From an uncultured archaeon (GTDB lineage Archaea; Asgardarchaeota; Heimdallarchaeia; Heimdallarchaeales; Kariarchaeaceae), in NCBI GenBank assembly GCA_964645535.1, contig CAZYCQ010000003.1, positions 43,328 to 107,327 of the forward strand: 64,000 nt of DNA, given 5' to 3'. Every line of letters begins with the position of its first letter. Positions within the stretch are counted from its first letter, which is position 1. Both the position numbers and the translations under genes were made by a program. The notes under the pieces were generated by a model. That model made no database searches and had not been told where the DNA came from. It saw nothing but the letters and a program-made list of their open reading frames with translations. This document shows, one piece after another, positions 38,898-56,068 of this stretch.

Positions 38898-41800
38898 GTG
38901 CAACATCGATTATTCGTCATATTTTTGCTGGCATTGATTTTGGTATCACAACCAGCGGTTGCAAATCAGACATATTCTCAGCCAATTGGATTTTTTCTTT
39001 TAGAGGACGGGGAGGATTTCTTTTCAGTCCTCCCATTGGGAACCAAGAAGGATGACAGTGGAAATGTCCACGTATGGTTCAACTATATTGAACCTACACT
39101 CCATGAGGATCAAGAACGATTGGTTGTGCTATATTATGCGGTCATTTCAGAAACAGGGGAGGTGTTCATCAAAGAATTGGATCGTCATCCATTCAGTTTA
39201 AGCAAGGTAGCCTTCTTTGATTGGAATGAACTACGGATTCTTCCAAATGGAACGGTAATGGGAATATTTGTGGCACCAAGTGATTTTGGGGTTGACTTGA
39301 ACCTTGTAAGATGGAATGGAAACCTGTCCGTGATCACACTTGAGCAACAAAGTGAATTTGATTTTTCTGGGGACATCATAGGACCCATTGACAAGCCAGA
39401 TGAAAATTTTCTTTATTTGCTTGATGGAGAGTTTGGGGGGAGCAAGTCCATCATGAAATTGGAGTTCTCAAGAGAAGGAAATCTTCTAAATAAAACAGTG
39501 GTAGGTTTTCCAACTTTGTTGGACGACAGCAAGGAAATTACAGACATATTTGATGCCACTTATGCCAATGGAACATTTTTTTATAGTGTAGCATTGCGTG
39601 AGAATGGAGCTTTTGATTCATTGGGGGTAGTTTCACAGATAAATCAAACTACAGTCTCTTTGTTTGCAAAATCCATGGATTATAACGTGAAAGAGATTGC
39701 AAACATTCCTTTCTTAAGAAACCTGAGACAAGATATTTTGACACCCCGCCTTGTGGCAACAGAAAATGGAAAGCTTTATTCTTATCTCTTTGGATTTGAC
39801 AATTCGGTCAATTTTTTGGGAATTTGGACAAATGGAACTCTGAAAGATATTTTCACAAATTCTACAGAAAACCCATTCCAGCTATCTTTCTTCCCGCTTC
39901 TAAGTGCAATAGGCGATCATCTTGAAATCTATTTCTTAGGAATCCAATATGCACAAGATGCCATTTCATTTACTGTTGATCATTTTACATATTTTGAGAA
40001 CGGCACCTTAACTAAAGAGAAATTTCTTGATCCCAACTTATCAGGAGACATATTTCTTTTCATTCCAGATCCACAGGCACAAGATTTTACAGCCATTGCA
40101 TCCACTTTTAACACTCCTCGGACATCCAGGATAGATTATGGCATTCTCAATGAAACTGTTGGGGGACTGTATCTCCTTTCTTCAGAAAGCCTGCCCCCCA
40201 TAGAACCCATGTTTTTTAATCTTATTCTGGAAAACGAACAGACCACTGCTAAGGAATTTAATCCCTTGATTTATCTATATCCAGCTATAGGAAGTCTCAT
40301 GCTCCTTTTTGCCATTCTCACTTATGCAAATTGGAGAAAGAGAAGACTTGCTATTCCTCCTGAATTGCAGAAGCTTCTGGACACCAAACCTGAATTGATT
40401 TCGGAAGGTAAAGAGGTAGAAAAGTTTGTTCATAGGTTGAGATTGAATTTAATTTATCTTAGAAGCAATGCGAAAAGAATCATCAGAACAATTCTCATAA
40501 TGTTTATCCCAGCGCTCTTATTTTCGACCCTTATATTGGGAATTCTTACATATCAAGCAAATCTGCTAAGCACCTATCAAGCACAAAATCCCTTGAATGA
40601 TATTGAAGACTTAAGTCTCGAGTCCAATATGAAAACAGATTTTACATGGACCAATCTCTGGTTCAGCGATGAATTCCAAGAGTCAAATTTCAGTGAGGTG
40701 GATTTTGCAATTCCTGAACAACTGTCTTCTCAATCCCTTAAGTCATTTGGAATTGAGGATTTGGGATTTAGATTATCTTCAGTTGTGACCTTCCCGCTTT
40801 TTGAACCTGTGTTCCTTAATCTCACCTTTGGAGAGGAAAATATTCAGGTCAATCTTCCTTTTCCCAGAGAATTTGGTGTGGTGGATCAACGTTGGTTTCA
40901 ATACCTAACAGACCATTTGATTCGAGGGCGTCTTCCTCAACATCCAGGAGAGGTACTAGTACTTGATTCTTGGTATGTTGAACCGGTTGCCTTTCTTCCT
41001 GATGAGCCATCAGGTGTGATTTGGGATGTAGGTTCAACCATTGAAGTGGCAGCTTCGGAATTGGATGTATTTCTTAACAGCACCGTTCAGGGACTTAAAC
41101 AGAATGTAACTGTTGTGGGTGTACTTGAGAGAGTAGAAAGCCTGCCATTTTCGGAAGTGAAAGAGTGGACCGAAAAACTGAATACTACCACCAAAGGTCT
41201 CAGACTATTGGACAAAGTACCGTTTGTTACGTTTTCACACCTGATGGGGAAGTTTCTCAATGAATTTTCAAGATTAAGCCTGCGTCCGACAGCACATATA
41301 AACATGAGATATGAAGTTGAAAAGGTGAATCGTGATGCAATTCCAGAATTGGTTCAAAATCTGAAGGAAATGGGAAATGAAACCTTACGGTTTACTGGTT
41401 TTACTTGGACGGGAAATTATTCAAGCAAGAGAATTGTGGAATTTTTGGAAGGATACTATCTTGCGAGTCGGGACATTCAATTGGAAACAGTGGTATTGAT
41501 TGTTCCGATTTTAGCGCTTGCAGTCTTGGTCACTTATGATGCACTGGGCATGAACCGATTGTCGATTACAGAGGAAATCAGGAGGTTCAAACGAGAGGGC
41601 ATGAGAACTGAAAGAATTGTACTACTGCTTTTGGCTGAGCAGGCCATGACGACGTTAGCATCAATAATCCTATCTCTAGCAACAGTAAATTATGCAACTC
41701 AGGAAATGATTAGGTTTACAGGTTACTTTGAACATGGAGACGTTTTTGTTCCACAGGTAACTTGGGAGCAATTGCCTTGGATTGGAATAGGGACATTCTT

Positions 41801-43340
41801 GGGTCTATTCGTACTGGGGTCAATCAATTCATTGACGGTTCTTTTCCGCAGGGAAGAGGCTAAGTTCGAAACAATGTTGGCCGGCATTCAATGGGATATC
41901 TTGGCGGTAATTTTTGGCCTTTCCCTTGTATTGATCAGTGATTTCCTAACGGGCTTTGTCGCTTCATCCCTAGATGAGAAAAATGAATTAGCTTCCGATC
42001 TTCCATTTCTTACAGTTAAAACGATTTCAACCATTATTGCAACATTAGGAATTCTTTTAGTACTCTCAAAACTCCTTAACCGATTTTTCTCCATCATTGG
42101 CTTCGTGGGTTGGAAAACCGTCAAGAGAAAGGAAGGACTGATATTCAAGGGCTTTCATATGCATATCGGTCTTTATGGAAGATTACTCATTGTATTTCTG
42201 ATCAGTATTTTCCTTGTGGTACCAATGTTCACCATTCCGGTTTCACTGAACAATGAATACAAAGTTTCAGCCTACAATGAGTTTTCAACAGATATCAGTG
42301 TACTTGAGTGGCATGCCGTGCCAAATCTTACACGGAGAGAAGTCTTAGGTATTGATGGAATTAAAAGCCATTCAGAATATTTCATCGGAATTGTGCCTTT
42401 TGCCAATGACCTAAAGGCATTAGTACTTGCCATTAATACCTCCACGTTCCTTTCAAGCATTTATGTTCCGAACAAATATCTTCCGGATTATGGGATCAAT
42501 CTTTCAGTAGTAGAAGATTTGAAAGAAGGTGAATGGTTGGGAAACAAGGCATTTTTGGAAAGAAATGCCTTTGACCCAGGAGATCGTCCGCTTTTCAGAT
42601 TTGAACATACATCAAAATCATACCCAATGAAGGTAAAGGCAGGATTCGACCAATTCCCCATACTTAAGCGTGAAGCAGTACGGCTTAATGATCCAATTGC
42701 CTATCCGCTTCAGATGGTAATTTCCTTGGAAACCCTCAAGGAGATACAGGACATATATTTGTTCCAAAAAACGGAAACATCTTCAGAAACTGCCAGAAGG
42801 CTTGAGGAGAGAAATCTACTGATCAGAAGCAAGAGGATTGACCAAGTGCCTGAAATGGTGGAAGAAATTAAATCGCTTACCGGAAGACGAATTGAGCATA
42901 TCAACACCTTCATTAATAAACAACGCCATCCGTTTTTCAGGGCATTTGAATTTCTCACCCACTTGAGTTTAATAACGGCAGCCCTATCTCCATTACTCGC
43001 CACCTTTGTGCTAGCTAAGCTTCTTTTTGAAAGAAGAAAAGACGAATGGGAGGTGTACTATAGAATTGGAATTTCCAAAGGGTTTTTCATTTTCCAAGTG
43101 ACCCTTGAATTGATTCTTTCAACGCTTTTACCGAGTTTGCTAGGTATTATAGTTGGAAGAATTTGGACTGAGAACAATGGATCACAACTTTTTGGCCTTG
43201 AAGGAAGAAAAATTGAACGGATGGAAATGACAGATTGGATATATGCTTGGGTAGGTATTCAGATCATTCTCTCCCTTTTCATTTGGATACAACAAATGAA
43301 TAGCATGCTCAAACGGCATATCAAGGAGGTTAGGCTGTGA
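38898..43340 (+). CDS. Giant (1480 aa) ABC-transporter permease with two FtsX/MacB-type 4-TM modules and large extracytoplasmic domains
   Basis: N-terminal signal peptide and a ~450-aa sequon-rich domain. FtsX-like blocks VLIVPILALAVLVTYDALGMNRLSITEEIRRFKREGMRTERIV (~41500-41630) and LITAALSPLLATFVLAKLLFERRKDEWEVYYRIGISKGF (~42960-43090). GTG start, with the stop overlapping the GTG start of the ATPase gene. Confidence 0.8.
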   Translation: MQHRLFVIFLLALILVSQPAVANQTYSQPIGFFLLEDGEDFFSVLPLGTKKDDSGNVHVWFNYIEPTLHEDQERLVVLYYAVISETGEVFIKELDRHPFSLSKVAFFDWNELRILPNGTVMGIFVAPSDFGVDLNLVRWNGNLSVITLEQQSEFDFSGDIIGPIDKPDENFLYLLDGEFGGSKSIMKLEFSREGNLLNKTVVGFPTLLDDSKEITDIFDATYANGTFFYSVALRENGAFDSLGVVSQINQTTVSLFAKSMDYNVKEIANIPFLRNLRQDILTPRLVATENGKLYSYLFGFDNSVNFLGIWTNGTLKDIFTNSTENPFQLSFFPLLSAIGDHLEIYFLGIQYAQDAISFTVDHFTYFENGTLTKEKFLDPNLSGDIFLFIPDPQAQDFTAIASTFNTPRTSRIDYGILNETVGGLYLLSSESLPPIEPMFFNLILENEQTTAKEFNPLIYLYPAIGSLMLLFAILTYANWRKRRLAIPPELQKLLDTKPELISEGKEVEKFVHRLRLNLIYLRSNAKRIIRTILIMFIPALLFSTLILGILTYQANLLSTYQAQNPLNDIEDLSLESNMKTDFTWTNLWFSDEFQESNFSEVDFAIPEQLSSQSLKSFGIEDLGFRLSSVVTFPLFEPVFLNLTFGEENIQVNLPFPREFGVVDQRWFQYLTDHLIRGRLPQHPGEVLVLDSWYVEPVAFLPDEPSGVIWDVGSTIEVAASELDVFLNSTVQGLKQNVTVVGVLERVESLPFSEVKEWTEKLNTTTKGLRLLDKVPFVTFSHLMGKFLNEFSRLSLRPTAHINMRYEVEKVNRDAIPELVQNLKEMGNETLRFTGFTWTGNYSSKRIVEFLEGYYLASRDIQLETVVLIVPILALAVLVTYDALGMNRLSITEEIRRFKREGMRTERIVLLLLAEQAMTTLASIILSLATVNYATQEMIRFTGYFEHGDVFVPQVTWEQLPWIGIGTFLGLFVLGSINSLTVLFRREEAKFETMLAGIQWDILAVIFGLSLVLISDFLTGFVASSLDEKNELASDLPFLTVKTISTIIATLGILLVLSKLLNRFFSIIGFVGWKTVKRKEGLIFKGFHMHIGLYGRLLIVFLISIFLVVPMFTIPVSLNNEYKVSAYNEFSTDISVLEWHAVPNLTRREVLGIDGIKSHSEYFIGIVPFANDLKALVLAINTSTFLSSIYVPNKYLPDYGINLSVVEDLKEGEWLGNKAFLERNAFDPGDRPLFRFEHTSKSYPMKVKAGFDQFPILKREAVRLNDPIAYPLQMVISLETLKEIQDIYLFQKTETSSETARRLEERNLLIRSKRIDQVPEMVEEIKSLTGRRIEHINTFINKQRHPFFRAFEFLTHLSLITAALSPLLATFVLAKLLFERRKDEWEVYYRIGISKGFFIFQVTLELILSTLLPSLLGIIVGRIWTENNGSQLFGLEGRKIERMEMTDWIYAWVGIQIILSLFIWIQQMNSMLKRHIKEVRL

Positions 43341-45016
43341 ATTGGGCGGTCGAAGTTGAAAATGTGGTCAAAATCTATCGGCATAAGTTTGATGGAACAA
43401 AAATTTCTGCCCTTCAAGGTTGCGATCTGCTGGTGAGAAAAGGAGAAGTCCTAGCCGTTATTGGACCCTCTGGAGCAGGGAAGTCCACATTGCTGCGATT
43501 GATTGCAGGAATAGAACAGCCCTCTAGTGGAAGAATCTCAATTGGTGGAATCTCAATCCAAGATTGGGATGAAACCAGAAGGAGGGAATTTCGGAGAAAA
43601 TTCATCGGTACATTTTCACAGCATGCCAGAGATAATCTAGATCCGGATATGAAAGTTTCCGAGGCAATTGAATGGGAACTAATAAATGCAGATTGGAAAC
43701 GGGATGAAATTGCACCTCGAATTGCAAGGGTTCTTGAAAGATTGAATATTGCCGGATTGAGAAACTCGCTTTGCAGAAACCTATCCGCTGGAGAGGCCAT
43801 GCGAGTTTCACTTGCAAAGGCCATTGCAAAAAAACCCTTTGTGGTTCTAGCGGATGAACCTTCCGGTCAACTTGACACTGAGAATATGAACCTACTCTTC
43901 AAGCTGATGAAAGAAGCCGCTAAGGAAGGAACGGCAATTGTCGTTGCCACACATGACACAAGGTTCCAAGCCCTTGCTGACAGATCTGTCATGATCCTCG
44001 AGGGAAAACTCGCTTCTGAAGAAGAAGGCATTGATTTGCTGCAACAGCATTTGGATCTTGACAAATTGCGAGAGCAAGGAGAATTGACAAGAACTGTAAT
44101 TGTCGATTCAACCAAACATATTCGTCTTCCATCTCCAGTAATCTATACCTTGGAACTAAATCGAAAAGCAAAAATTGTAATTGATTTCAGAACCGGAAAT
44201 GTTCGTCTTGAAAAACATCCTGAAGATGACCAATTCATTGTGGATGCAGAAACAAAGGAACCAGAGCTGAAATTTTCAAGGGAAAATGTACAGAAGAGGC
44301 CGTTCATTACATTTGAAAAAGTCAACAAAAGCTACGATGGAAAAACCAAAATTGATGTGATCAAGAATCTTGATTTGGAAATTCTTGAAGGAGAATTTGT
44401 AGTACTTTTAGGACCTTCAGGGGTAGGCAAGACTACCCTAATTGGCATGATTTCAGGACTTGAAAAACCTACAAGTGGAACTCTTTCTGTCAAAGGGACT
44501 CAACTTGAAAAAATGTCTGTAGGAGAGCTTTCCGCGTTTAGGAAGAAAAATATTTCATTGCTTACACAGAATTACATCCTTCACCCATATCTGACTGTTG
44601 AGGAGAACATTGCCTTGAGTTACAGAATGATGGATCAGGAGGTAGATAGGAAGAGCATAATGGCAGTCCTCAATAAATTGGAAATGACCCGGTATGCCAA
44701 TGTGTATCCCGGAGAGCTTTCCGGTGGACAAAGACAAAGAGTTGCATTCACATCCGCCTTTCTCAAGCCAAATTACGATCTTATTCTCCTTGATGAACCA
44801 ACTGCCAATCTTGATTCAATTCTTGCACGAAAAATCATGAATCTGCTTACAGAGCTGGCAGAGACAGGAAAGACAGTTCTTCTTGCAACCCATGATCTGA
44901 CAATGGTTCGACCGGGTTATAGGGTGTTGAGGATCAAGGAGCAAAGAATCTTCGAAGATGTCATTGCAACGGAAGAATATTGCAACAACCTAAAGAAGGA
45001 ATATTTTCATCAATAA
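43337..45016 (+). CDS. ABC transporter ATP-binding protein with two tandem nucleotide-binding domains
   Basis: NBD1 has GPSGAGKST, a degenerate signature LSAGEAMRV, and VVLADEPSGQLD. NBD2 has GPSGVGKTT, LSGGQRQRV and LILLDEPTANLD. An AGGAGGT SD lies ~7 nt upstream of the GTG start. Confidence 0.9.
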   Translation: MNWAVEVENVVKIYRHKFDGTKISALQGCDLLVRKGEVLAVIGPSGAGKSTLLRLIAGIEQPSSGRISIGGISIQDWDETRRREFRRKFIGTFSQHARDNLDPDMKVSEAIEWELINADWKRDEIAPRIARVLERLNIAGLRNSLCRNLSAGEAMRVSLAKAIAKKPFVVLADEPSGQLDTENMNLLFKLMKEAAKEGTAIVVATHDTRFQALADRSVMILEGKLASEEEGIDLLQQHLDLDKLREQGELTRTVIVDSTKHIRLPSPVIYTLELNRKAKIVIDFRTGNVRLEKHPEDDQFIVDAETKEPELKFSRENVQKRPFITFEKVNKSYDGKTKIDVIKNLDLEILEGEFVVLLGPSGVGKTTLIGMISGLEKPTSGTLSVKGTQLEKMSVGELSAFRKKNISLLTQNYILHPYLTVEENIALSYRMMDQEVDRKSIMAVLNKLEMTRYANVYPGELSGGQRQRVAFTSAFLKPNYDLILLDEPTANLDSILARKIMNLLTELAETGKTVLLATHDLTMVRPGYRVLRIKEQRIFEDVIATEEYCNNLKKEYFHQ

Positions 45017-45018
45017 CG

Positions 45019-45966
45019 TCAACTTGCAAGGGTTATATCCGAATTTGCGTGCCGTGAAAGAATATGACTATATTTTTCTTTTATTTTTGCTGCTTCAACC
45101 CTTTCCATTGCCAATTCCACATATTTCTGTTCCAGCTCGGTTCCCAAAAAGGTTCGTTTGGTATGGAGAGCTGCAATCGCCGTCGTTCCACTTCCCATAA
45201 AAGGATCAAACACCACATCTTCCTTGAAGGAATAGAGTTGAATCAATCGGTAGGGAAGCTCAATCGGAAAAGGAGCAGGATGACCGATACGTTTGGCCGA
45301 GGTTGTCGGAAAGTTCCAGATGGATTTGGTGAATTCCATGAATTCTTCCCTTGAAATTGTTGATGTTTTGTCTTTTTTGGCCCGTTTCATGGTGCCTTTT
45401 GAGAAAACCAAGATATATTCATGAACGTCACGAAGAGTGGGATTGGAAGGACTCTTCCAAGACCCCCAAGCAGTGCTGGAACCTGCACTTGCCCCCTTGT
45501 CCCAAATGATCTCACCTCGTTGTAGATAACCAATGTCAGAAAGGATTTGAGAAACATAATCCGAGATGGGAATATATGGTTTCCTTCCCACATTTGCAAT
45601 ATTGATGGCAACTCTTCCTCCATCAACCAATTTGGGATAGATCTCTTCAAACACATCTCGAATAAGCTCTAGGTATTCAGTGAGTGAAAGATCCATGTCG
45701 TAATCTTTTTTGGCGTTGTAAGGGGGAGAAGTCACCACAAGATGGAGGCAATTGTCAGGAATAAAGGAAAGATCACGGGCATCTGCCTGGACAATGGTAT
45801 TTTTGAGATGGGAAGGCAATTCATTCTCTTCACCTTTGGGGCTATAGTTAGGTGCTTGACGGATTTCCCGGTACATGGCAGATTCGTAAAAAATTGAGGA
45901 ATCGTGATTTTCGCGTTTTGAAGCACCAAAAGAACTAGTTTTCGTCCGTTTTTTCATGACTTTCAC
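45019..45966 (-). CDS. Beta-class N4-cytosine/N6-adenine DNA methyltransferase (N6_N4_Mtase family), SPPY catalytic motif
   Basis: Motif IV VVTSPPY (SPPY = 45718-45729) precedes the AdoMet motif I FDPFMGSGTT, which is the beta-class order. GHPAPFPIELP block present. The ORF-track start is GTG at 45966; the ATG at 45957 (MKKRTK...) is more likely. Confidence 0.85.
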   Translation of the reverse strand: MKVMKKRTKTSSFGASKRENHDSSIFYESAMYREIRQAPNYSPKGEENELPSHLKNTIVQADARDLSFIPDNCLHLVVTSPPYNAKKDYDMDLSLTEYLELIRDVFEEIYPKLVDGGRVAINIANVGRKPYIPISDYVSQILSDIGYLQRGEIIWDKGASAGSSTAWGSWKSPSNPTLRDVHEYILVFSKGTMKRAKKDKTSTISREEFMEFTKSIWNFPTTSAKRIGHPAPFPIELPYRLIQLYSFKEDVVFDPFMGSGTTAIAALHTKRTFLGTELEQKYVELAMERVEAAKIKEKYSHILSRHANSDITLAS

Positions 45967-46291: not shown

Positions 46292-49200
46292 TTACCCTCG
46301 TTTTCGCATCTCCTCGATCTTTTCTGCAATTTGTTCAATTATAATTTCTATGAACTCCTTATCCTCTAAGTCAGAATTATACACCCTGAATACATCCCAA
46401 CCATTCTTCTTTAACAATATGTCAATAATTCGATCTTTTTTGTTTGAAGGTGTATGAAATGTGTTCCCGTCGATATAGATCGCGATTTTCTCCTCTTTAA
46501 AAGTAAAATCTGGGATGGTATATGGCATGTTTATATCACCAAGATCCACCTTTTCCTGTGTGGTATATCCAAAGAGCCTGTGTAACTTCAAATAATTCTC
46601 AAAAATCATTTCAGGCGGGGTTGACGATTTAGAAATCAAAGAAGGCTTGTAATTTTCAGGAATTACATGCTGAAATTTAGGTCTTAATTTAAGAGAGTTC
46701 AAAAGATCTATGGCCAAATGTCTATTCAATAAGTCGTGTATAGGTTGGTTCCAATATGTTTTCATACATGCATAGCAGGATGTTTCACACGCGTTTCCAC
46801 AATCCATTAGTTTTTCGATTGCAGAATCTATAACATTTATCCACTTCTCAATCAACTGTTCGAGAATTCCGGAGCCCCCCTTCATAGGATCGAACAAAAT
46901 CCCATTGAGTTGTTCCTCTGGAGTTGAAAATACGAAATAGTCAAAGTCCTCACGATTACTCTCTAAACTGTTTGAAATGCCTATCAAAATCCCTTCAAAA
47001 ATATTTACGTACTCGTCTTTGGTATCAAATCCCTTCAACAAAATACATTCAAATTCTGATTCATAATAAATCCCAAACCTAAATGAACGACTTCCACATT
47101 TTTCGAGGTGGAACTTCTGGAACTTTTCCAAATGCTGCTCTTTTGTGAAGACCGACCTAACCGCCCCACAATTTGGGCAAATCGGGTATTGAAGTAGGGT
47201 TGAGTCTTTCTCAACTCCGGAATTCAATAACAGAATACTCTGATCGGAAATATGTTCCAATATTTTATCTCCAATTTCATATCTTTTCCCTTCACCATTG
47301 AACTGTTGAGGTTTACCGTTCAGCTTAATAGGAAGAACTCGCCTAAATTCCTCGGCATCTGAATCGACCCTTCCCACATATCTTAAGATAACGTTACTTA
47401 GAGGAATTGCACCAATTGAATATGAATTTTCCTCAGGATTTGAATAGCCAACCCAATCCTCATTTGATTCAATCACCATTTCACCTAAAATTGTGAAGTG
47501 GCGGATATCAATTCCCACTTCACCAATTTTTGAAAGCTCTATCAGGCTTGTACTGAATTTCGCACCTAATACATAAAGGGCATATCCTGGAGAGAATTCC
47601 CTAAGAGCAATCGGAGCGATTCTTGAAAAGGCAAACTCAGGAACAATTGATCTGCTGGGGGGTGGACTTTGAGCGATTACACCTTCTGTATTTGCGGAAT
47701 ATGCAGGCAATAATCCTTGATTTTGATAGAAGTTATATGTATAGTTGTCAAAATTCTTACTCAACATCTTTGTATAAATACGCCTATAAATTTCAAGGAG
47801 GTTTTTTTCCTCCCTATCCAAATCTCTTCGAAGGTTCGAAAGATCTCTGTAATTTTTTTCGGCCCATATGAATCGGGACTGTAGATTTTTGATTACTCCA
47901 AGGAGGGATTCAGGGAATTCTTTAAGTACGGACTTGTGAAATTTTGGATCTGCAACACCTTTGGCCTCCCTAGGCCAGCGGATGCTGAAAATCTTCCGAA
48001 TTTCCTCAACAATTGAACTTTCATTTGCACTTATGAAATCTCTAAGTTCTTTGATTATGGTTTCATTCGAAGGCACTGTTATGTAACTCCCATTTTCACC
48101 AACCAGAAATGATTTCACGAAAGGAGGGAGGATTTTGTTGTAAATGTCCATCCTGTTGTTTCGAATTACTTGTGCAAGAACGGTCGCATGAATATGCTTC
48201 CTTACCATCGTCCGATTTTTGAGATTAAAAACCGGAGTCAATGTTTTTCCGTTCAACATCCGTGACGGATTGTTGAAAAAGTAATCGTCATGTGCGTTGT
48301 TAGTACAGTAATTGAAAATTACGCCAATCCCTTCTCTTCTGCCCACTCTTCCCGCTCGCTGCCAATAATTCGATGGTGTCGGTGGAACATTTCTCATCAA
48401 AACAACGTCCAAACCTCCAATATCCACACCTAGTTCCATTGTTGGACTCGCTACCAATACGTTCGTTGATCCTTTCGGTTTCTTGAATTCTTCCTCGAAT
48501 TGACGGCGAAGTTCTCCGGGAACTTGCGCAGTATGTTCTTTCGGAAGCAAAAGCACAAAATCCGAATCTAAAGTTGAAAGATTGTAATCATCATCTGGCA
48601 GGGGAATTTTCACCAATCGCCCTTCACAACGCCATCCTATGCAAACGGGGCTGGGGTTGGGATGAAGCAGACCACAAATTTGGCATTGATACATCCTTCT
48701 TTGGGATTTGGGAACAACCTTAATCCCGACTTTTTTACCATTCAACTGATAACCTGTTGCCCAAGTTTCGGCTCCCCGTTTAATTTTTACTTCCACTGGA
48801 ACTAGGAGGTTTGTTTTTTCTGTTAGGAATTGCCAGATGTCTTTGAAAAACGATTCCAACGATTTTATATTGATTCCAGATTTACGGACAAGACTAGTAT
48901 AACTTGTTTCATGAGTCCTTGAGTAAAAATTCTTAATTCGTTTCTTGCCACCATCTCCTTTTTCAAATTGAAGGAGAAACGGTGAATGTTCAACGACATA
49001 ATACGGTAGGTATCCAGATAAAACCTCTTGGTCACCTTCCTTCCAGAAACGTGAAAAAATATTATGCGTTTTGCCATACGAAAAGACTCTGTTCTTTCGC
49101 GTTAAATGAAGCATATTTCGAATAATTTCGGTAAGAGTCTCTTCATCGATTGAATAAATCCGAGAAAGTTCTTTAATATGTTCATTTTCTGGATTGAGAT

Positions 49201-51550
49201 CCTCATACTCAATGTTTATTACACCCATTCCCTCCAAGTTTTCCCGGTTCGAATAGCGGTTTGTAATTTCAATTAAAATACGGTATACCAATATGGTTTC
49301 CAAAGTTGATTTGAAATTTTTTGAGAAGGACTCTCCTGCCGTTTCTCCAAATGCATCCGGGAACAAATTCATCGCCAGGTCCCTATCTTCGTACAGAATT
49401 TTAGTTAGTCCCTGCACAAGGTCACCTATTGAAACAGGAATGGATCCATCCTTGGTTTCTTTCCTCAACACTTCAAACATTAAATGACGTAGACGATAGA
49501 CCTTCGCCTTATCAGTCATCCAAGCTACTTGAAAGGCAGCCTCTTGACGGTTGTCCGCAAACATCAGCAGTCGTTGAGAATCTTCCGGAAGGTTGAACAG
49601 GATTTCTTGAGCAAGAATATAGTTGTTTGCCACTTGAATTCCCTGAACCTTGGCCATGGGTTCATACCTGCCCTTGGTGCTGCGTTCACAAGTTCCACAT
49701 CGATTGATTTTCTCCCCTTTTTGAACCAGCGCGAATACCTTGACCAGTTTGTCATGTCCACAGCCTCCAGAGGCACAATGTTTTACATGCTTGTCATGCA
49801 ATGTGCCACACTGCTCACAGGCAAACAAGGTTTCAAAATGGCGATTTGAATCTTCATCTTCTATCCCATTCAAATTATTCGAAAACAATATTCTTACGCC
49901 ATCTTCCTCCTTTTTAGCTTCATAATAATAACACGAGCCATCTGAACTTGGTAACCCCCTCTCAGTGATGGAACCGGTCTTCTTACCCTCGATCATTGTG
50001 TACCGCTGTTCCAAATAATGCTGATTGCAGTTTCGACATATCAAGACAGGAAAATACCGCTTTTCTCCCGTTGGGTTATCCTTCATGTGCAGGATAACCT
50101 TAGTTCCAAGCCCACTCGATACAAGTTCTCCTCTTAACTCCCTTATCCCACTAACGAAATAATGCAGTTTTGCCCGAAACAGAGGATCCCCATCCTTTTG
50201 AGCAATTGATGCCAAGGCGAGATAAAGTAGGAGACTATGAACCAATCCTTCATCCTTGGAAAAACCCAAGTCCCGACTCACTTCGTCCAAGACGTAAGTT
50301 AGGTTTCTCGGTCGTTCCAAGTTTTGTGCAATAGACCTGATGAACTTTAATTTCGGGAGATATTCAAACAAAGATTCCCTCCAATTAGCACTGGGATCAA
50401 GTTCCAAGTTGGGTGCTACATGCTCCATTGCATATCTTACGGCTTCAAAGATAGCATCTTCCTCTGAAAGATTCGAATCGTATAGTTTCTCTAGAAAGTT
50501 ACGATAGACGTCTTCGGGATTAGTTATTTTCCTTGGTTTAATCAACAAAGCACTCCTGATCTGCCAAACTTGCTGGTCATAGCTTGGACCAATAACTCTC
50601 GTCCTTTCCGGAGGAGATCCCGTTAAGCGAAACATGAATTCCTTTGTTTCTGATTCCTCACCTAAGGTTGCACTGGTGGCTATGCAGACTACCTCATCTG
50701 CATCGGCGTGAAAGGTCGCAGATCGAGCGATGATCCGCCGGAAAAGGACAGAAGCCTCTGCTCCAAAGATCCCTCCATAGGTATGTGCCTCATCGATTAC
50801 CACATATTTCAAAGGAGCCCGCTCGAAAAGGTTGATATCCGATTTACGCGTTAGAAGAAGTTCGAGTTGAAACACATTTGTTATCAAGATCATTGGCGGG
50901 TCATTTCTGATCTCTTGCCTTGACACCCGTTGTTCTTCAGGATACACGCGCTTTTTTCGTTTAAGGGCAACTTTATATTCCTCCCTTGTTTGCACTCTTT
51001 CAACAGCCTCTTCTTGGTCTCGCGTATCCCCAGTATAAACTCCAAACGTCACTCCAGTTCCGACCAGAAGCTTGCTGATCCGTTCTAGCTGGTCATTTGC
51101 CAAGGCATTCATGGGATAGATTAGGATGGCCTGAACCCCCGACTTTCCTGCATCCCTCATCTTTAGACAATGGCTAATAATAGGAATAAGAAAGGACTCG
51201 GTCTTTCCAGAACCAGTGCCTGTTGTAATAATCGTATGCTGATCACTTACAATTGACCGGATAGCATTTTCCTGATGCTTATGGAGTGTAAACTGAATTA
51301 GATTTTTGAGACCTGGGTGGAGCAAGCCCTCATCGACAAGCTGAGAAACTTGCATACCTGTTTGGAATTTCCTCTCCAACGAGATAAACGGTCCTTTAAT
51401 CAAAGGCGACTTACTTAAATCGTTGAACGAAATAAGGGTTCTAAACTGTTTCTGCAAATCAGGGTCTGCAAATCGAAACGCAGTTAATTGGTACCTAAGA
51501 TATTGTTCCAACACCTTTTGCGAAAATGTTATGGGATTGAATGACTTCAT
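46292..51550 (-). CDS. 1752-aa DEAH-box SF2 helicase fused to a DUF1998-like Cys-rich module and a C-terminal Vsr/DUF559-like endonuclease domain (DrmA+DrmB-like / DruE-like)
   Basis: Motif I [9 protein letters not shown] (51197-51223), motif II DEAH (50783-50794), SAT, [13 protein letters not shown], then after a ~330-aa insert [67 protein letters not shown]. Several CxxC pairs. [20 protein letters not shown] (46766-46801) resembles the DUF1998/MrfA Zn module. The tail [21 protein letters not shown]...NGWDVFRV (within ~46295-46620) resembles Vsr/DUF559. Confidence 0.85.
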   Translation of the reverse strand: [1752 protein letters not shown]

Positions 51551-51554
51551 CTGT

Positions 51555-51561
51555 TCACCTC
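51555..51561 (-). promoter_or_regulatory. Shine-Dalgarno GAGGTGA for the helicase gene
   Basis: The minus strand reads TGAGGTGAACAG-ATG. The SD overlaps the MTase stop codon. Confidence 0.5.
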
Positions 51562-54500
51562 ATAGGAATTTTCCCAAACCAGTCGACATTTCCTCGTCGC
51601 CGTCACCAAAGCATTCCCTATCATCATGGGTATCGCCATAAATTCTATGCAACTCAGCGTCTTCTGCTTGACAGCGTGCCCATCCATCATCCGTCATGTT
51701 GAGTTGCCAATCAAGGAAACGAGGACCCAATTCAGTTCTTGCATATTCCGGAAGTTGCCAATCCTCTTCAAGAAACTTATCAAATCCCTTCTCCAACAAA
51801 TCTTTATATGCTAGAAGGCAAAAAGTTTGAATCCTCATGGGTTTGGGTTTTTCTTTGTCAACTCTCCAAAAGCCTTGTGGGTTGGATTTGTCAAAAGAGA
51901 GGATGTATTCAAACTCCTCATACGTTAAGTTGTAAGCATAGGCAGCGCACGCGTTTAAAATAGCATAAATTCTTGTTCTCTCATGTAGAGTCAAAGCCCA
52001 CTCTTTGGCATAGAATGGCACTTGATTTCTGAAACAGAGCCAAAAGTGGGCAAATGCGGGTGCATTGCAAACAAAATTCAAAACAAGTTTGGTAATAAAC
52101 CTGTTCGAAAAATTTGAAAGGTGGTTTGGAAATCTGATTAAAGTAATTATATCTTTTGTTAGAGAGCTTTTAGTCAACCAAATTCTCGTTAGAAAATCAA
52201 AGCAAAAGCTCATTAAAACTGAAACAGCTGACGTATAGATACTATTAGTACCGGTCAACGTTGGTAACTTGTGGGTACATGAATAATTTGGGATCAAGGT
52301 AGAAATGAAAGATCTTTGGTTTGTATTGCTCGCGATATCCCTAAAAACAATTTTGGGCATTGGACTGCCAACAATTCGGGTTTTTGCATCCTCTAGCCTC
52401 ATATAGTATTCTGTTACACAATATTGCCTATCGAGCGGGGTTTCCTCAGTCTTTACCCTTTTTGCACTTCCAGAGAGATAGTTTGCTGCTGCAAAATCTC
52501 CGATCTGAATGTGTTTTCCTCCATACACCGGCAAAAATGTTTCCTTCCCATCGTGATAAATTCCGTACTTATTGACGTTGTTCCTGATTTGGGCATCACG
52601 CACAAAAAGGCTGGATGCCCCAGAGGCATCAAATTCTCTCATATACTTCAAGCCCAGATCCTCGAAGTTGGGATTGAGAACCAACTTCCCGTCTTCCTCA
52701 TGGGTCGACATCTTGATCAGCAATTCATACTGTTTTCTCGAGGTGAGAGCAATCAGCTTGAATTGGTCGCCTGTCAGTAGCTCCATTAGCTCAGGGGTTT
52801 GGTTGAAAACATAGGGTTCATCAAATGTTGCGTTTTCCCAATCCTCCAGATCCGTTCGGTAAAATGCCGTGTAGACACCTGTTGCAGGTGCACCTTTTTG
52901 GCAGACGAAGGCCGCGAACATGAAGCTGGAATGTATTTCAAAGATCTTCTTCCGATTGCTGAATGAGAAAAACCATTCCCAACGGGATTGCTCAAACAGC
53001 ATTTTTCGAAGCTCACTGGAACCTGTCTCCGTACCCAAGCCCATGTCTAAAATTAATCCGATCCTACCGCAGGGTTTGGCAATATGTATCGCAAATTCTG
53101 TGAATAGCTTGTAGTAGTTTTTATCGCCTATGCCTTGATACAGGAAAGGAATAGTGAATTCCCCTTCCTTCCGGTCGATAGTTCCCCCGCGATTGCCGAT
53201 GTAGTTAGTCAATGACAGGACTTGGTTGTTGTAATGAAGCCATTCTTTCTGAATCGAATCTGATTGAAGCAGCCTTTTCTTGACAACCTTCATCTCTTTT
53301 GAGGCGTAAATGTCTATTAAGGGATGGTAATTGACAAGAAATTCCTTGGTCTCAACCTTGATCTTCTCCCATGGTGGATTGCCAATTACGGCATCAAACC
53401 CTCCCTTTTCGAATACCTCGGGAAATTCAAGTTCCCAGTGGAAGAACTTGACTTCATTCGCATAGCGGAAGACGATACGGTCAAATTCTGGATCGCCTTC
53501 TGCTAACATTCGTTTGAAGCCATTGCCACTAAATCTATCTTTGAACTTGACAAATTCATCATGAGAGATAAACCAGAGGGCTGTCCAGAGATCCATCCGC
53601 CGTTTTATTGACACATAGTTTGGTGAGGTGAGCAGCTTGTTGTAATGATCGTATTTTCGTGTTTCGTCAAAATCCACGATTATTTGCTCACGGTTCTCGA
53701 TCAAGTTTTTTATTTCGGTATCGATAAACTCATGGAGGGTTGTCTGATTAATGTCGATCCGGGAACCAAGAGTTTTCACTTCACTTTTGAATGGTTTTGT
53801 TTTCTTCTCCTTCTCATTCATTTCTTCCCGTTCTTTGATTGCATTGATGGGAAACCGTGCGGACTCTATTTCCGCCTTCCAAGCACCTACAAGAGAGTTG
53901 CCGACCTTTAGTTTGTGGTCCAAAAATTTGAAGGGAAGGGTATTGTCCATGGTTTCAAGCCATAACGCAAGTTTCGCCAATTCCACAGCCAGTGGGTTAA
54001 TGTCAACCCCATAGATACATCTTTCGATGATGACCCGCTTTAGCTTTCTTACGAGTAACTCCCAGTTGTAGGAACCGTTGCTCACCGTATGGTCTTCATA
54101 TTCCACACTGATACTGCCATTGATCTTGCAGAAAACCGTTGTTCCGTTGATTCGAATACGATTCGATTGTTCAAGGCTCCAAGCAAGTGCCTCGGATAGG
54201 TAGTTCAGGGCACTGATAAGAAAGCTTCCCGAACCCATTGCTGGATCCACGACATCAAGGTCAACAATATCTTCAGGAGATTTAAAGCTCCCATCCTCAT
54301 TTCTCACCAAGGGTTCGAGAGCCCTTCTGACTGTTGGCTTTACCAGTCCCGGCTTGGTGTAGAAGGTTCCAGAACCCTTTCGAGAGCCGTTCCAAGCAGA
54401 AATATAAAGCTTGCCGGGAGGAAAGACCTCAAGGATTAGTTTATCGTATGGAAGGTTCGTTTTAGTAATTTTTCTAAACCGGTCAACAAACTTGTTGATT

Positions 54501-56068
54501 TCTACCCTTATTTCATCTATTTCACTTTGACCAATAACCTCCTCTGAGGGTTCATATGTACCTGTTTTACCCTTATAGAGTTCTTTTAGTTCAAGATCTG
54601 TAAGAGAATTCAGAAGTTGGAGGGAAATAATTCTTGTCTCCTTCCCTGTGTTCAACACAACAGCCACTATGTCTTCTTCTTTGACCAAGCGAACCTGATA
54701 GTCAAGCAATCCTTCATAAATCATCCCAATGTATTCCGTTCCCAGTTCTGCAAAATTGACAGGCATGGTTATGGTTTTTTTTCTGTTTTTTACCGAGGTT
54801 TGAACCGGGGCAAATTTCAGCTTGCTTAATATTTGGTAGATTTCGTAATTGGTAACAATCCAGTTTCCCTCTTCAAAGAACGAGAGAGCTTTTCCGAGGG
54901 GTGTTTTGATTTTATTGCCGGGACGGAAAAGTTCTCCGGAATATGCCGGTATCGAGAAATCTGAAAATGGGGACCCATAATAAACAAGGTTGAATAGGGC
55001 GAGGATTCTGTACCAAGCATTTTTTTCTAGATTCATCTCTTCGGGAGACAATTCGCTTTCCTGTTCTTTTAGATCCTTCCATATTTTCTCTAGAGAATAG
55101 CCCTGTTGATAGATGGGTGAGCTTCCGACAGGCAACAGTCCCCTTGCTTCTGCGTACAGGATGACGATCAATCGGAGCATGATTCTAATTGCAGCATGAT
55201 ATATGGGTTCAAGTTTTTTGGGAGTGATGATTTCATCCTCGGGTTCTCCATCGAAGAGGGCAGAGAGAAGTTTACGGGTACCATCCACAGTCGCAGCCTC
55301 ACCCGATAGGAAGAGTTCTATTGCCTCCCGGATTTGTTCGCCAATTTTTGTGGAGAGAACACTTTGGCTTCTCCGACTTTGGAAGACATAATGTTCCAAT
55401 GGCTTCTTGTGCTCAGACAGAATACCGAATAGTCCTTCAAGAAGGGTGATCCCTTCATCGTTGAGCATATCGTGACAATTCCAAGTAACCCAGGCAAGAT
55501 TGTCAAGAGTTGCGTAGATAAGCCTTATTTGCGAACCATTGGTGAAGATTCCGAAGCGAATTCCATGATCCACCATCTCTCTTACGAATTTTGCCTGCCT
55601 TTGCCTCATTTTGCCAATACCCAATTTTTGGTTATCATGGACAATCATGACAAACAGATCCACATTAGACCTTTTTTTTCCATTCTTAGGTTTCTTCTTG
55701 GAAGATAGCAGGAGATTCCCGATTTGGTTTTCCTCTGCCTTTTGGAAGCTAATTTTCGTCCCATTAGACTTGACAACAGTCCATTTGGAGTGATCGGAAA
55801 GTTCTAAGGAGGTGAACAGTTTTTCAACCCATTTAAACCTTGAAAGTTTGGTCAGATCATTTTCTTTTTGGGCACTAAAGGTCTTGTTCACTTGGAAATG
55901 GTCGAATGCAAAACGCAGCTCATCGATCAAATTAGCCGGAAGGGTGTTCGGTCCTTCAGGAAACAGTTCCTCAATTACGGTTTCACTGAACATGAAACCT
56001 TCTTTTTCAAGCTGGTTCCACCATGAATTGTCTTTGAATTGTACGAGTTGTTTCTGAAGAGCGCTCAT
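51560..56068 (-). CDS. 1502-aa gamma-class N6-adenine DNA methyltransferase of the Eco57I/type IIG/PglX/DrmMI-like kind
   Basis: GTFYTKPGLV, motif I VVDPAMGSGSF (DPAMGSGSF = 54221-54247), IYGVDINPLAVELAKLALWLE, KVGNSLVG, FFHWELEFPEVF, and motif IV GFDAVIGNPPW (NPPW = 53369-53380). There is ~560 aa N-terminal to the MTase core and ~600 aa C-terminal to it. Confidence 0.85.
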   Translation of the reverse strand: MSALQKQLVQFKDNSWWNQLEKEGFMFSETVIEELFPEGPNTLPANLIDELRFAFDHFQVNKTFSAQKENDLTKLSRFKWVEKLFTSLELSDHSKWTVVKSNGTKISFQKAEENQIGNLLLSSKKKPKNGKKRSNVDLFVMIVHDNQKLGIGKMRQRQAKFVREMVDHGIRFGIFTNGSQIRLIYATLDNLAWVTWNCHDMLNDEGITLLEGLFGILSEHKKPLEHYVFQSRRSQSVLSTKIGEQIREAIELFLSGEAATVDGTRKLLSALFDGEPEDEIITPKKLEPIYHAAIRIMLRLIVILYAEARGLLPVGSSPIYQQGYSLEKIWKDLKEQESELSPEEMNLEKNAWYRILALFNLVYYGSPFSDFSIPAYSGELFRPGNKIKTPLGKALSFFEEGNWIVTNYEIYQILSKLKFAPVQTSVKNRKKTITMPVNFAELGTEYIGMIYEGLLDYQVRLVKEEDIVAVVLNTGKETRIISLQLLNSLTDLELKELYKGKTGTYEPSEEVIGQSEIDEIRVEINKFVDRFRKITKTNLPYDKLILEVFPPGKLYISAWNGSRKGSGTFYTKPGLVKPTVRRALEPLVRNEDGSFKSPEDIVDLDVVDPAMGSGSFLISALNYLSEALAWSLEQSNRIRINGTTVFCKINGSISVEYEDHTVSNGSYNWELLVRKLKRVIIERCIYGVDINPLAVELAKLALWLETMDNTLPFKFLDHKLKVGNSLVGAWKAEIESARFPINAIKEREEMNEKEKKTKPFKSEVKTLGSRIDINQTTLHEFIDTEIKNLIENREQIIVDFDETRKYDHYNKLLTSPNYVSIKRRMDLWTALWFISHDEFVKFKDRFSGNGFKRMLAEGDPEFDRIVFRYANEVKFFHWELEFPEVFEKGGFDAVIGNPPWEKIKVETKEFLVNYHPLIDIYASKEMKVVKKRLLQSDSIQKEWLHYNNQVLSLTNYIGNRGGTIDRKEGEFTIPFLYQGIGDKNYYKLFTEFAIHIAKPCGRIGLILDMGLGTETGSSELRKMLFEQSRWEWFFSFSNRKKIFEIHSSFMFAAFVCQKGAPATGVYTAFYRTDLEDWENATFDEPYVFNQTPELMELLTGDQFKLIALTSRKQYELLIKMSTHEEDGKLVLNPNFEDLGLKYMREFDASGASSLFVRDAQIRNNVNKYGIYHDGKETFLPVYGGKHIQIGDFAAANYLSGSAKRVKTEETPLDRQYCVTEYYMRLEDAKTRIVGSPMPKIVFRDIASNTNQRSFISTLIPNYSCTHKLPTLTGTNSIYTSAVSVLMSFCFDFLTRIWLTKSSLTKDIITLIRFPNHLSNFSNRFITKLVLNFVCNAPAFAHFWLCFRNQVPFYAKEWALTLHERTRIYAILNACAAYAYNLTYEEFEYILSFDKSNPQGFWRVDKEKPKPMRIQTFCLLAYKDLLEKGFDKFLEEDWQLPEYARTELGPRFLDWQLNMTDDGWARCQAEDAELHRIYGDTHDDRECFGDGDEEMSTGLGKFL

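Follow-up and report, generated by a model that had tools for sequence, protein, structure and literature searches.

A probable ARMADA type I operon encoding the helicase-nuclease ArmC in an uncultured archaeon

Results

Gene Organization of the Locus

The window analysed here is a 64,000-nucleotide stretch of an archaeal metagenome-assembled genome. On its reverse strand, an ORF with an ATG start (46292-51550) codes for a DExH helicase of 1752 aa (NCBI accession RMG34078.1). Two genes located upstream on the same strand code for an SNF2 helicase and an adenine methyltransferase, and each of the three proteins retains its catalytic motifs. The genes are tightly packed: the stop of the first and the start of the second overlap by 4 nt, and a gap of 9 nt separates the second from the third. 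They are named here armA, armB, and armC after the ARMADA system to which they probably belong:

56065-59304 (-): armA, SNF2/RapA/BrxHII/DrmD-like helicase of 1079 aa, with GLGKT at 156 and DEAH at 268
51560-56068 (-): armB, PglX/DrmMI/type IIG-like N6-adenine methyltransferase of 1502 aa, with DPAMGSG at 608-614 and NPPW at 897-900
46292-51550 (-): armC, YprA-family DExH helicase-nuclease of 1752 aa, the subject of this study

ArmA contains the Pfam domains SNF2-rel_dom and Helicase_C. It exceeded the cutoff of the NCBIfam DrmD model NF038317 (669.7 bits; cutoff 610) and also matched RapA (1e-52), and among PADLOC models it matched DrmD (8e-202) and BrxHII (3e-83). ArmB showed Pfam matches to Eco57I, N6_Mtase, and MmeI_Mtase, PADLOC matches to REase_MTase_IIG (3e-164) and DrmMI (7e-125), and an NCBIfam match to BREX-1 PglX (9e-11). 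The arrangement of the trio is conserved: in 19 related loci from many phyla, genes for an SNF2 protein, a methyltransferase, and a helicase follow one another on one strand in this same order. The nearest relative also has the three genes linked, but arranged C-A-B.

Directly downstream of armC lies a gene for a SPPY methyltransferase of 315 aa. It was considered as a conserved fourth component and rejected, as it has its own TATA-like element and as 80 related loci contain nothing meaningfully homologous to it, the sole match being a 43-bit fragment situated 10 kb away in locus L071. No ArmD-like sequence was detected anywhere in the window by tblastn (best E 0.2). The search for a mobile-element context yielded no tRNA gene in the window and no integrase among the ORFs scanned in it. 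The genes surrounding the trio in the window are mostly housekeeping genes.

Domain Architecture of ArmC

ArmC was modelled with AF2 in two parts, one covering aa 1-1130 (pLDDT 86.7, pTM 0.86) and a second one (model 2) covering the C-terminal part (pLDDT 85.1). The domain order in both models agrees with the published description of ArmC (PMC12458937). The following regions were delimited:

50591-51289 (-): RecA1, aa 88-320, with motifs I, II, and III (Pfam DEAD 91-299, motifs, AF2 secondary structure)
50201-50533 (-): all-helical insert after RecA1, aa ~340-450 (AF2 helices 345-449)
49649-50176 (-): all-beta double zinc module, aa ~459-634 (AF2 strands 459-634; C505/C508, C578/C581, C592/C597, C618/C621)
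49457-49636 (-): RecA2 part 1, aa ~639-698, with the motif IV-like FADNRQEAAF (AF2 helix 639-653, strand 661-664, helix 668-698)
48551-49453 (-): insert within RecA2, aa ~700-1000 (AF2 helices 708-912, beta wing 916-945, ribbon 953-982)
48221-48550 (-): RecA2 part 2, aa ~1001-1110, with motifs V and VI (Pfam Helicase_C 1008-1072, AF2)
47711-48214 (-): helical HTH/coiled-coil-like module, aa ~1113-1280 (AF2 model 2)
46982-47683 (-): OB-CON beta module, aa ~1290-1523, with one zinc module (C1458, C1461, H1481, C1485) (AF2 strands)
46751-46981 (-): MZB/DUF1998 zinc domain, aa 1524-1600, with C1584, C1588, C1592, and C1595 (Pfam PF09369)
46295-46633 (-): Vsr/DUF559-type (EDxHD-like) nuclease, aa ~1640-1752 (Pfam, Foldseek, residue conservation)

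An initial annotation, made from the sequence, had described this ORF as a 1752-aa helicase with a split second RecA lobe and several zinc-ribbon inserts, and its positional claims were borne out. The ORF boundaries were exact. Motifs I-III, placed by it within aa ~110-300, correspond to GSGKT (113-117), DEAH (253-256), and SAT (293-295). The motif IV-like stretch expected at ~661 is LLMFADNRQEAAF at aa 661-673, in which F664, D666, R668, Q669, A671, and A672 are invariant among the relatives, and motifs V-VI, expected at ~1030-1072, are VLVASPTMELGVDIGG...QRAGRVGRR at aa 1031-1072. Pfam DEAD covers 91-299 and Helicase_C is limited to 1008-1072. In the model of aa 1-1130, a RecA2-type beta-alpha unit (strand 661-664, helix 668-698) is followed by a helical and beta module of ~300 aa (700-1000) and then by the remainder of RecA2 (1003-1100); the large insert proposed for the second lobe was recovered, with a helical/beta-wing module and a zinc ribbon between the RecA2 elements. 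Part 2 of RecA2 is 42% identical to DruE 1073-1198.

The Cys motifs named in the initial annotation were all present (CRNC at 505, CEQC at 578, CASGGC at 592, CGTC at 618, CQIC at 956, CIGWRC at 970, and CPNC at 1458), and the CxxC-type pairs that it had placed between and around the lobes are invariant in 24 full-length relatives with 32-37% identity to the query. ArmC has 24 Cys, 19 of which, together with H1481, are invariant in these relatives, as are its five Cys/His clusters. The clusters of aa 1-1130 (12 Cys) are invariant also in a 49-sequence alignment (A2), and C1458/C1461/H1481/C1485 and C1584/C1588/C1592/C1595 in a further one (A3). Since this conservation persists at 32-37% identity, the clusters are, judged from the alignments, more than a product of chance.

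The helical insert at ~340-450 is a confident all-helical fold in the AF2 model, and its position matches that of the BrxA-like/WH domain of the ARMADA-Druantia lineage (PMC12458937); a Pfam scan of the isolated insert (E<=10) gave no match. In the all-beta module that follows (459-634), 8 of 8 Cys are invariant and the Pfam Zn_ribbon hints are weak. The model suggests that the RecA2 insert is a winged-helix/MarR-like module of duplex-binding type that closes with a zinc ribbon formed by C956, C959, C970, and C975, all four of them invariant; the same Pfam scan of this insert (E<=10) gave a weak MCM winged-helix hint (E 0.06). Model 2 contains a helix of 37 residues (model residues 103-139, aa 1202-1238 of ArmC). 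The OB-CON region matched MrfA (6znp) in Foldseek at 5e-7 over 347 columns, and it carries one Cys/His cluster in ArmC and in its homologue P0033 (see below), vs. two in E. coli ArmC-II and DruE. The DUF1998/MrfA-type zinc module that had been proposed from CPNC and from window positions 46766-46801, which encode C1584/C1588/C1592/C1595, was confirmed by Pfam PF09369 at 1524-1596 (31.8 bits, cutoff 24.2), and this domain aligned to DruE 1653-1722.

ArmC ends after a single Vsr-type domain; the extra EEP and Vsr domains of type II are missing. E1647, D1681, D1694, H1699, and D1706 are present. The isolated domain matched Pfam DUF559 (26.2 bits, cutoff 20.6), MTES_1575 (3.5e-6), and Vsr (0.024), and Foldseek retrieved, each at high probability, 3r3p (TMt 0.72) and 3hrl (TMt 0.69), which are also the structures matched by ArmC Vsr domains in PMC12458937. 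In the MAFFT alignment the catalytic His lies two residues off-register relative to the family His, beside a 4-residue deletion, and nuclease activity is, on these sequence features, predicted rather than certain. This domain, the helical insert at 340-450, and the location of the zinc-rich beta domain (459-634) ahead of the motif IV strand were absent from the initial annotation.

ArmC Belongs to the ARMADA-Druantia Lineage

Database searches with ArmC gave at least 7788 proteins at E<=1e-10. The 119 best non-self matches among those listed are ~1770-2000 aa long, with coverage of the query at 97-100% and identities of 31-35%, and the indels specific to the query do not exceed 7 residues. In PADLOC, the two best models were DruE3 and DruE1 (6e-114 and 4e-106), vs. 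7e-20 for DrmA. A profile search of the PDB retrieved DruE (9tu7, 1.9e-108) and MrfA, and neither DrmA nor DrmB at 1e-5. The proposal that a fused DrmA- and DrmB-like polypeptide is closest to Druantia DruE was thereby upheld. In Foldseek searches of the PDB, the N-terminal model retrieved nothing beyond MrfA and generic SF2 helicases, and the C-terminal one matched MrfA and the Vsr-like nucleases 3r3p and 3hrl; the PDB copy used runs to April 2026 and gave no DruE entries (9tu7, 9wae), which the sequence search does find. ArmC is a DExH helicase of superfamily 2 and of the YprA/MrfA family, and it appears to carry all the accessory modules of the ARMADA-Druantia lineage.

By hhalign, the ArmC family profile aligned in a single collinear block both to E. 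coli DruE (1432 columns, E 2.3e-75) and to E. coli ArmC of type II (1478 columns, E 2.5e-80). The similarity runs from end to end, inserts included, which overturns the reading of ArmC as an unusual architecture: a divided motor domain and zinc modules like those of ArmC are the norm in a family described in 2025 and not an oddity.

Probable Assignment to ARMADA Type I

The trio of SNF2 protein, methyltransferase, and helicase was named ARMADA by Bell et al. (2025; PMC12458937), whose description of ArmC includes a BrxA-like domain after RecA1, a beta-barrel zinc module with two or more CxxC motifs where RecA2 starts, and a MarR-like insert in RecA2 that has a zinc module close to its C-terminus. 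The pairing of a DruE-like helicase with a DISARM-type SNF2 protein and methyltransferase, pointed out in the initial annotation, is therefore real, and the novelty implied for it does not hold. RMG34078.1 was not found among the rows listed for Table S1 of the supplementary tables (PMC12458937), so the type was assigned via the full-length homologue P0033 (Evansella MDQ0257513.1), which those rows enter as "ARMADA Type I helicase." With P0033 the end-to-end score of ArmC was 956 bits, compared with 274 for E. coli ArmC-II and 290 for E. coli DruE, the type I score being 3.3 times that of DruE. In a rough neighbour-joining tree, ArmC groups with P0033 and archaeal homologues, and ArmC and P0002 form a long branch. 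The type I assignment is based on this listed homologue, the scores, and the rough tree. The locus also displays type I features: the OB region has one zinc module, there is only one Vsr domain, ArmD is missing from the window, and the host is an archaeon, with the A-B-C gene order noted for archaeal ARMADA (PMC12458937).

On these grounds we consider it likely, with a probability of about 0.8, that the 1752-aa protein serves as the helicase-nuclease ArmC in an ARMADA type I defence operon of three genes (armA-armB-armC), which spans 46292-59304 on the reverse strand. Type I is a predicted system type (PMC12458937), and the locus shares with it the three proteins ArmA-ArmB-ArmC and, judged from the AF2 models, the order of domains in ArmC: RecA1 followed by a helical insert, then the beta zinc module, a RecA2 interrupted by a winged-helix-type module with zinc, the helical/coiled-coil module, OB-CON-MZB containing one zinc module, and one C-terminal Vsr domain. 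It differs in that the window ArmC has at most about 35% identity to any other sequence found, and therefore lies on a long branch, in that C-A-B is the commoner gene order, and in the small SPPY methyltransferase gene downstream, missing from all related loci examined. RMG34078.1 is probably a divergent member of this known type.

The reference for type II was the E. coli ArmABCD system (NCTC 12900, EDL933, Sakai SpLE6), for which we used the Sakai genome, which carries the whole Zorya-Druantia-ARMADA island. The A-B-C order is common to both, ArmA is 27% and ArmB ~26% identical, ArmC is collinear (hhalign E 2.5e-80), and the Walker, DEAH, GxG, and NPPW motifs required in E. coli are all present in the window trio. 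In contrast, the window lacks ArmD, a RelE-UvrD/GajB-like helicase, and its ArmC (1752 vs. 2113 aa) lacks the extra EEP-like and second Vsr domains and has one OB-region zinc module instead of two. Type II is reported to be absent from archaea (PMC12458937).

Alternative Interpretations

The trio could also be viewed as a class 1 DISARM system (DrmD, DrmMI, DrmA, DrmB, DrmC) in which DrmA and DrmB were fused and DrmC was replaced. ArmA and ArmB are indeed homologous to DrmD and DrmMI, the former exceeding the NCBI DrmD equivalog cutoff (669.7 vs. 610 bits) and the latter matching DrmMI at 7e-125, and helicase and DUF1998 functions are both present, the DUF1998 module of the helicase being located on DrmB in DISARM. 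However, DrmA and DrmB are separate proteins in DISARM whereas the window has a single polypeptide, and the ArmC core is far from DrmA: two NCBIfam DrmA models gave 22.4 and 21.2 bits (cutoffs 999 and 950), the PADLOC DrmA match was confined to motifs V-VI (7e-20, vs. 6e-114 for DruE), and the PDB profile search led to DruE and MrfA, with no DrmA or DrmB at 1e-5. Since the ArmC helicase core begins near residue 88, the EVE-like domain, trigger loop, and jelly-roll N-terminus of DrmA (PMC12458937) have no counterpart in it. Moreover, none of the neighbours has a PLD domain (DrmC), the nuclease being of Vsr type and fused to the helicase. We regard this interpretation as very unlikely.

Even less probable is a Druantia-type system in which DruE would have unusual partners. 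It draws on the top PADLOC models (DruE3 and DruE1), on the collinear profile alignment, and on DruE of E. coli Druantia type III (cryo-EM 9tu7 series) being the solved structure closest to ArmC, which appears to share its layout: RecA1 and WH, the double zinc domain, a RecA2 with a duplex-binding insert, eWH, OB-zinc, and MZB. Nevertheless, DruE has a tandem PLD where ArmC has a single Vsr domain with acidic and His residues, two OB-region zinc modules against one, and a dimerisation domain, and its score is less than a third of that of the type I ArmC reference. The partner of DruE is DruH, and none of the scanned neighbours matched the DruA-D, DruM/F/G, or DruH models; those of ArmC are a DrmD-like SNF2 helicase and a DrmMI-like methyltransferase.

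The least probable of the three is that a housekeeping DNA-repair helicase of the MrfA/YprA kind became by chance a neighbour of type IIG restriction-modification and SNF2 genes. This agrees with the mainly housekeeping surroundings and with the features that ArmC shares with Bacillus subtilis MrfA (6znp), namely the DExH core, the strands of the N-terminal region, and the OB-CON-MZB canopy with its zinc site of four Cys. It does not agree with the tight packing of the genes (4-nt overlap, 9-nt gap), with the linkage of the trio, which is seen across many phyla in 19 related loci and in another order in the nearest relative, or with the defence-branch inserts and fused nuclease of ArmC. MrfA, a 751-aa protein that works together with MrfB in DNA repair, has no such nuclease and none of the helical, zinc, and winged-helix inserts. 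BRIGADE and TALON were rejected, as 7-deazaguanine, TPR-CSD, and TBP genes and an RNase H fusion were all missing.

Discussion

As an ARMADA type I system, the locus may function along lines suggested by analogy with DISARM, BREX, E. coli ARMADA II, and the cryo-EM work on DruE. ArmB, an NPPW adenine methyltransferase, would mark host DNA at a short motif, and the SNF2 translocase ArmA and ArmC would act jointly against invading DNA. ArmC is probably, by the same analogy, a 3'-to-5' helicase that loads on single-stranded DNA. It would load where single-stranded DNA is exposed, thread the tracking strand beneath the OB-MZB canopy and across RecA2 and RecA1, and translocate 3'-to-5' while its zinc and winged-helix inserts grip the duplex and part the strands; the Vsr-type nuclease could then cleave the DNA, resulting in direct, non-abortive clearance of the virus. 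DruE is a 3'-to-5' DNA helicase in which the domains corresponding to those of ArmC guide the duplex and both strands (DruE cryo-EM work). In E. coli, ARMADA II confers a non-abortive protection from phages that depends on the NPPW motif of ArmB and on the Walker motifs of both ArmA and ArmC (PMC12458937; PMC13463889). We found no demonstration in the literature of methylation as the self mark of ARMADA, even for type II.

It is conceivable, though we consider it unlikely, that the archaeal three-gene ARMADA is a distinct sub-lineage that discriminates self from non-self differently from bacteria, with the SPPY methyltransferase providing a second or alternative mark, or with the Vsr domain targeting replication intermediates of archaeal viruses independently of methylation. 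This idea draws on the ~35% identity of the best relative, the A-B-C order, and the absence of ArmD.

The "missing link" between DISARM and Druantia sensed in the initial annotation had already been described, as ARMADA, and no new question is opened by it. The present analysis adds an uncultured archaeon to the probable hosts of ARMADA type I. All family domains and catalytic motifs appear to be retained at about 35% identity, and the invariant residues are therefore a useful guide for mutagenesis. Since no experimental test of ARMADA type I or of archaeal ARMADA was found in the papers searched, this compact three-gene locus is a reasonable candidate for such work.

Domain Organization of ArmC

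The armC ORF (46292-51550, minus strand) starts with ATG and contains 1752 codons; the ORF and all motifs quoted for it in the initial annotation were confirmed at their positions. AlphaFold2 modeling of residues 1-1130 gave a confident structure (pLDDT 86.7, pTM 0.86), whose domains are listed together with the sequence motifs and Pfam matches.

Features of ArmC (amino acid positions)
Ahead of RecA1: N-terminal helices and strands (model)
88-320: RecA1 (model)
91-299: DEAD (Pfam)
113-117: GSGKT
253-256: DEAH
293-295: SAT
345-449: all-helical domain (model)
459-634: all-beta domain with eight cluster cysteines (model)
505/508, 578/581, 592/597, 618/621, 956/959, 970/975, 1458/1461: cysteine pairs
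661-673: LLMFADNRQEAAF
661-698: RecA2-type strand and long helix (model)
700-1000: inserted module of helices, beta wing and zinc ribbon (model)
1003-1100: remainder of RecA2 (model)
1008-1072: Helicase_C, matched only here (Pfam)
1031-1072: VLVASPTMELGVDIGG...QRAGRVGRR
1524-1596: MrfA zinc-binding domain (DUF1998), score above cutoff (Pfam)
1584-1595: four-cysteine cluster

Since this predicted order places residues 700-1000 between the two parts of RecA2, the model bears out the proposal that RecA2 is split, by an insert of about 300 residues. A second model, of residues 1100-1752 (pLDDT 85.1), comprised a helical module that includes a helix of 37 residues, an OB-CON region rich in beta strands, the MZB and a small alpha/beta C-terminal domain. 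In Foldseek searches the beta region matched MrfA (6znp, 5e-7), and the C-terminal domain matched two Vsr-like nucleases, I-Bth0305I (3r3p, TMt 0.72) and NGO0050 (3hrl, TMt 0.69), as well as PvuRts1I and AbaSI in their nuclease domains. This domain, absent from the initial annotation, was matched in Pfam by DUF559/MTES_1575 (Vsr-like nuclease), and it retains the acidic and histidine residues expected of the fold (E1647, D1681, D1694, H1699, and D1706), the histidine adjoining a short deletion relative to the family. Across 24 aligned full-length relatives (32-37% identity to ArmC), all 19 cluster cysteines and H1481 were invariant. The 12 cluster cysteines within residues 1-1130 were likewise invariant in an alignment of 49 sequences (A2), as were C1458/C1461/H1481/C1485 and C1584/C1588/C1592/C1595 in a further one (A3).

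Relationship of ArmC and Its Partners to DISARM and Druantia

Genes armA, armB, and armC form a tight operon on the same strand; armA and armB overlap by 4 nt, and 9 nt separate the upstream stop codon from the armC ATG:

56065-59304, minus strand: armA, SNF2 helicase (1079 aa)
51560-56068, minus strand: armB, adenine methyltransferase (1502 aa)
46292-51550, minus strand: armC, helicase and predicted nuclease

ArmA scored 669.7 bits against the NCBI DrmD equivalog (cutoff 610) and additionally matched RapA and BrxHII. ArmB contains Eco57I, N6_Mtase, and MmeI_Mtase domains with intact DPAMGSG and NPPW motifs, and is strongly similar to DrmMI, type IIG enzymes, and PglX.

Profile scores place the helicase far nearer to DruE of Druantia than to DrmA of DISARM: the PADLOC DruE models gave 6e-114 and 4e-106 versus 7e-20 for DrmA, whose match spanned motifs V-VI only. 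A PDB search with the ArmC family profile retrieved E. coli DruE (9tu7, 1.9e-108) and MrfA (4.6e-49), and neither DrmA nor DrmB at 1e-5. Using hhalign, this profile gave one collinear alignment with E. coli DruE (1432 columns, E 2.3e-75; profile 53-1694 versus DruE 51-1750) and one of 1478 columns with the type II ArmC of E. coli, ArmC-II (E 2.5e-80). The inserts are therefore family traits and not a quirk of one gene, and the singular architecture first suggested did not hold; structure and mechanism of E. coli DruE have by now been published.

ArmC is unlikely to be a repair helicase that happens to lie beside these genes, since the linkage is conserved (see below) and the protein carries the defense-lineage inserts. 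Membership in DISARM, even as a variant, is excluded by the DrmA scores, the fused helicase, and the absence of PLD proteins, and membership in Druantia by partner genes missing among the neighbors scanned and a Vsr domain where PLD is expected.

Identification as ARMADA Type I

In 2025, Bell et al. (PMC12458937) defined ARMADA by a YprA-family helicase that resembles DruE and is fused to a Vsr nuclease, accompanied by an SNF2 protein (BrxHII/DrmD-like) and a methyltransferase (PglX/DrmMI-like), and cast the system as the "missing link" that joins DISARM and Druantia. In the ArmC described there, RecA1 is followed by a helical insert that resembles BrxA, a zinc module of beta-barrel type lies where RecA2 starts, and RecA2 is interrupted by a MarR-like insert that has a zinc module of its own; then come an HTH/coiled-coil module, an OB-CON-DUF1998 region with inserted zinc modules, and a C-terminal Vsr domain (PMC12458937). 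In domain order and position, our predicted structure matches this description segment by segment, with an all-helical domain at the place of the BrxA-like insert and a module of helices, beta wing and zinc ribbon, a possible winged helix, at that of the MarR-like one.

ArmC corresponds to NCBI RMG34078.1, from an archaeal MAG, and has at least 7788 homologs at E<=1e-10. The best non-self relatives listed shared only 33-35% identity over 99-100% of its length, and indels specific to ArmC did not exceed 7 residues. One full-length relative, MDQ0257513.1 of Evansella vedderi (P0033), carries the label "ARMADA Type I helicase" in Table S1 of PMC12458937. Comparison with this reference and with proteins from the SpLE6 island of E. 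coli Sakai, where DruH-DruE and ArmA-D are encoded, gave 956 bits end to end for type I versus 274 for ArmC-II and 290 for DruE. In a rough neighbor-joining tree, ArmC grouped with P0033 and archaeal homologs, outside ArmC-II and DruE. Between RecA2 and MZB, ArmC and P0033 have one Cys/His cluster, whereas ArmC-II and DruE have two. The protein stops after a single Vsr domain, no ArmD-like helicase was found in the 64-kb window, and the host is archaeal with an A-B-C gene order, all of which fit type I as described. The system is a divergent archaeal member of ARMADA type I; the substance of the initial interpretation was right, and its claim to novelty falls, the combination having already been named.

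Conservation and Variation in Related Loci

Eighty related loci were fetched from one-genome-per-species contigs. In 19 of them SNF2, methyltransferase, and helicase genes lie on one strand in the order of the window (14 with type-I-like helicases, five in a second clade), and 13 more have the methyltransferase upstream, the SNF2 gene falling beyond the flank fetched. The locus of the nearest relative (P0002) reads helicase, two unrelated reverse-strand genes, SNF2, and methyltransferase, the commoner type I arrangement. Some ARMADA loci are interleaved with other defense-type genes: a Mrr_cat nuclease between ArmC and ArmA (L082, nearest relative), a McrB-like AAA_5 protein following ArmC (L002:15925-18132), and an 848-aa unknown plus a 615-aa DUF2357 protein inserted between ArmB and ArmC (L016:5561-9939).

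UvrD-type helicases were located directly 3' of four type-I-like ArmC genes (L057:15730-17775, L022:15794-17851, L006:6821-8863, and L040:7997-10021), whose products scored 646-1378 bits against the type I reference and 171-292 bits against ArmC-II. The L057 protein is 34% identical to E. coli ArmD end to end, and the other three share 37-50% identity with it or with its counterpart in L022. Since ArmD-like helicases adjoin type-I-like ArmC in these loci, ArmD seems not to be restricted to type II.

No SNF2/PglX-like gene was found within 10 kb on either side of type-I-like ArmC in L011, L015, L026, L037, L038, L077, and L022. Their neighbors include proteins without a Pfam match, with an AAA_16-TPR protein in L015; L022 keeps the ArmD-like helicase as sole partner. 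These ArmC versions may stand alone or have other partners. About 20 of the best 120 homologs (including P0050, P0055, P0078, P0085, P0089, P0092, P0095, and P0096) are 1960-2000 aa long and have an additional Peptidase_S24 domain (LexA-like, PF00717), listed after DEAD and before MZB. Such a protein is called "YprA/SOS-response repressor LexA" in one source. They may represent an autocleavage-regulated ArmC variant.

Genomic Surroundings

Genes outside the operon
19-7626, plus strand: 2535-aa protein with FG-GAP and beta-propeller repeats, opening the window
38898-43340, plus strand: 1480-aa protein with a signal-like N-terminus, about 11 more hydrophobic segments and large loops between them
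43337-45016, plus strand: two-domain ABC ATPase (559 aa), overlapping the preceding gene by 4 nt
45019-45966, minus strand: 315-aa beta-class N4/N6 DNA methyltransferase (SPPY at 80, DPFMGSG at 254)

The 315-aa methyltransferase gene lies 325 nt downstream of armC, with a TTTATATA element about 40 nt ahead of its start and no restriction gene adjacent. Because it had no meaningful homolog in any of the 80 related loci, it looks to be an orphan, or an enzyme gained locally, rather than a system component. No sequence match to the 1480-aa protein was found in Pfam, NCBIfam, PADLOC, or PDB. It does not belong to the defense operon and probably represents an FtsX/MacB-like ABC permease of giant size; the 2535-aa protein is probably a giant surface adhesin. 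Other genes are housekeeping (PPDK-like protein, M13 peptidase, class I tRNA synthetase, fumarase, S8 subtilase, and IcmF). The window contains no tRNA gene and the ORFs scanned no integrase, and therefore the ARMADA operon has no obvious mobile-element borders.

Proposed Mechanism

Protection by ARMADA II of E. coli is direct and does not involve abortive infection; it depends on each of the four genes, on the Walker motifs in ArmA and ArmC, and on the NPPW motif in ArmB (PMC12458937; PMC13463889). DruE, a DNA helicase of 3'-to-5' polarity, loads where single-stranded DNA is exposed, and its double zinc domain and the duplex-binding insert of RecA2 seat the duplex. By homology, we propose the following mechanism: ArmB would mark host DNA, the ArmA translocase would help ArmC to engage single-stranded regions of unmarked invading DNA, and ArmC would unwind this DNA 3'-to-5', its Vsr domain then cutting it.
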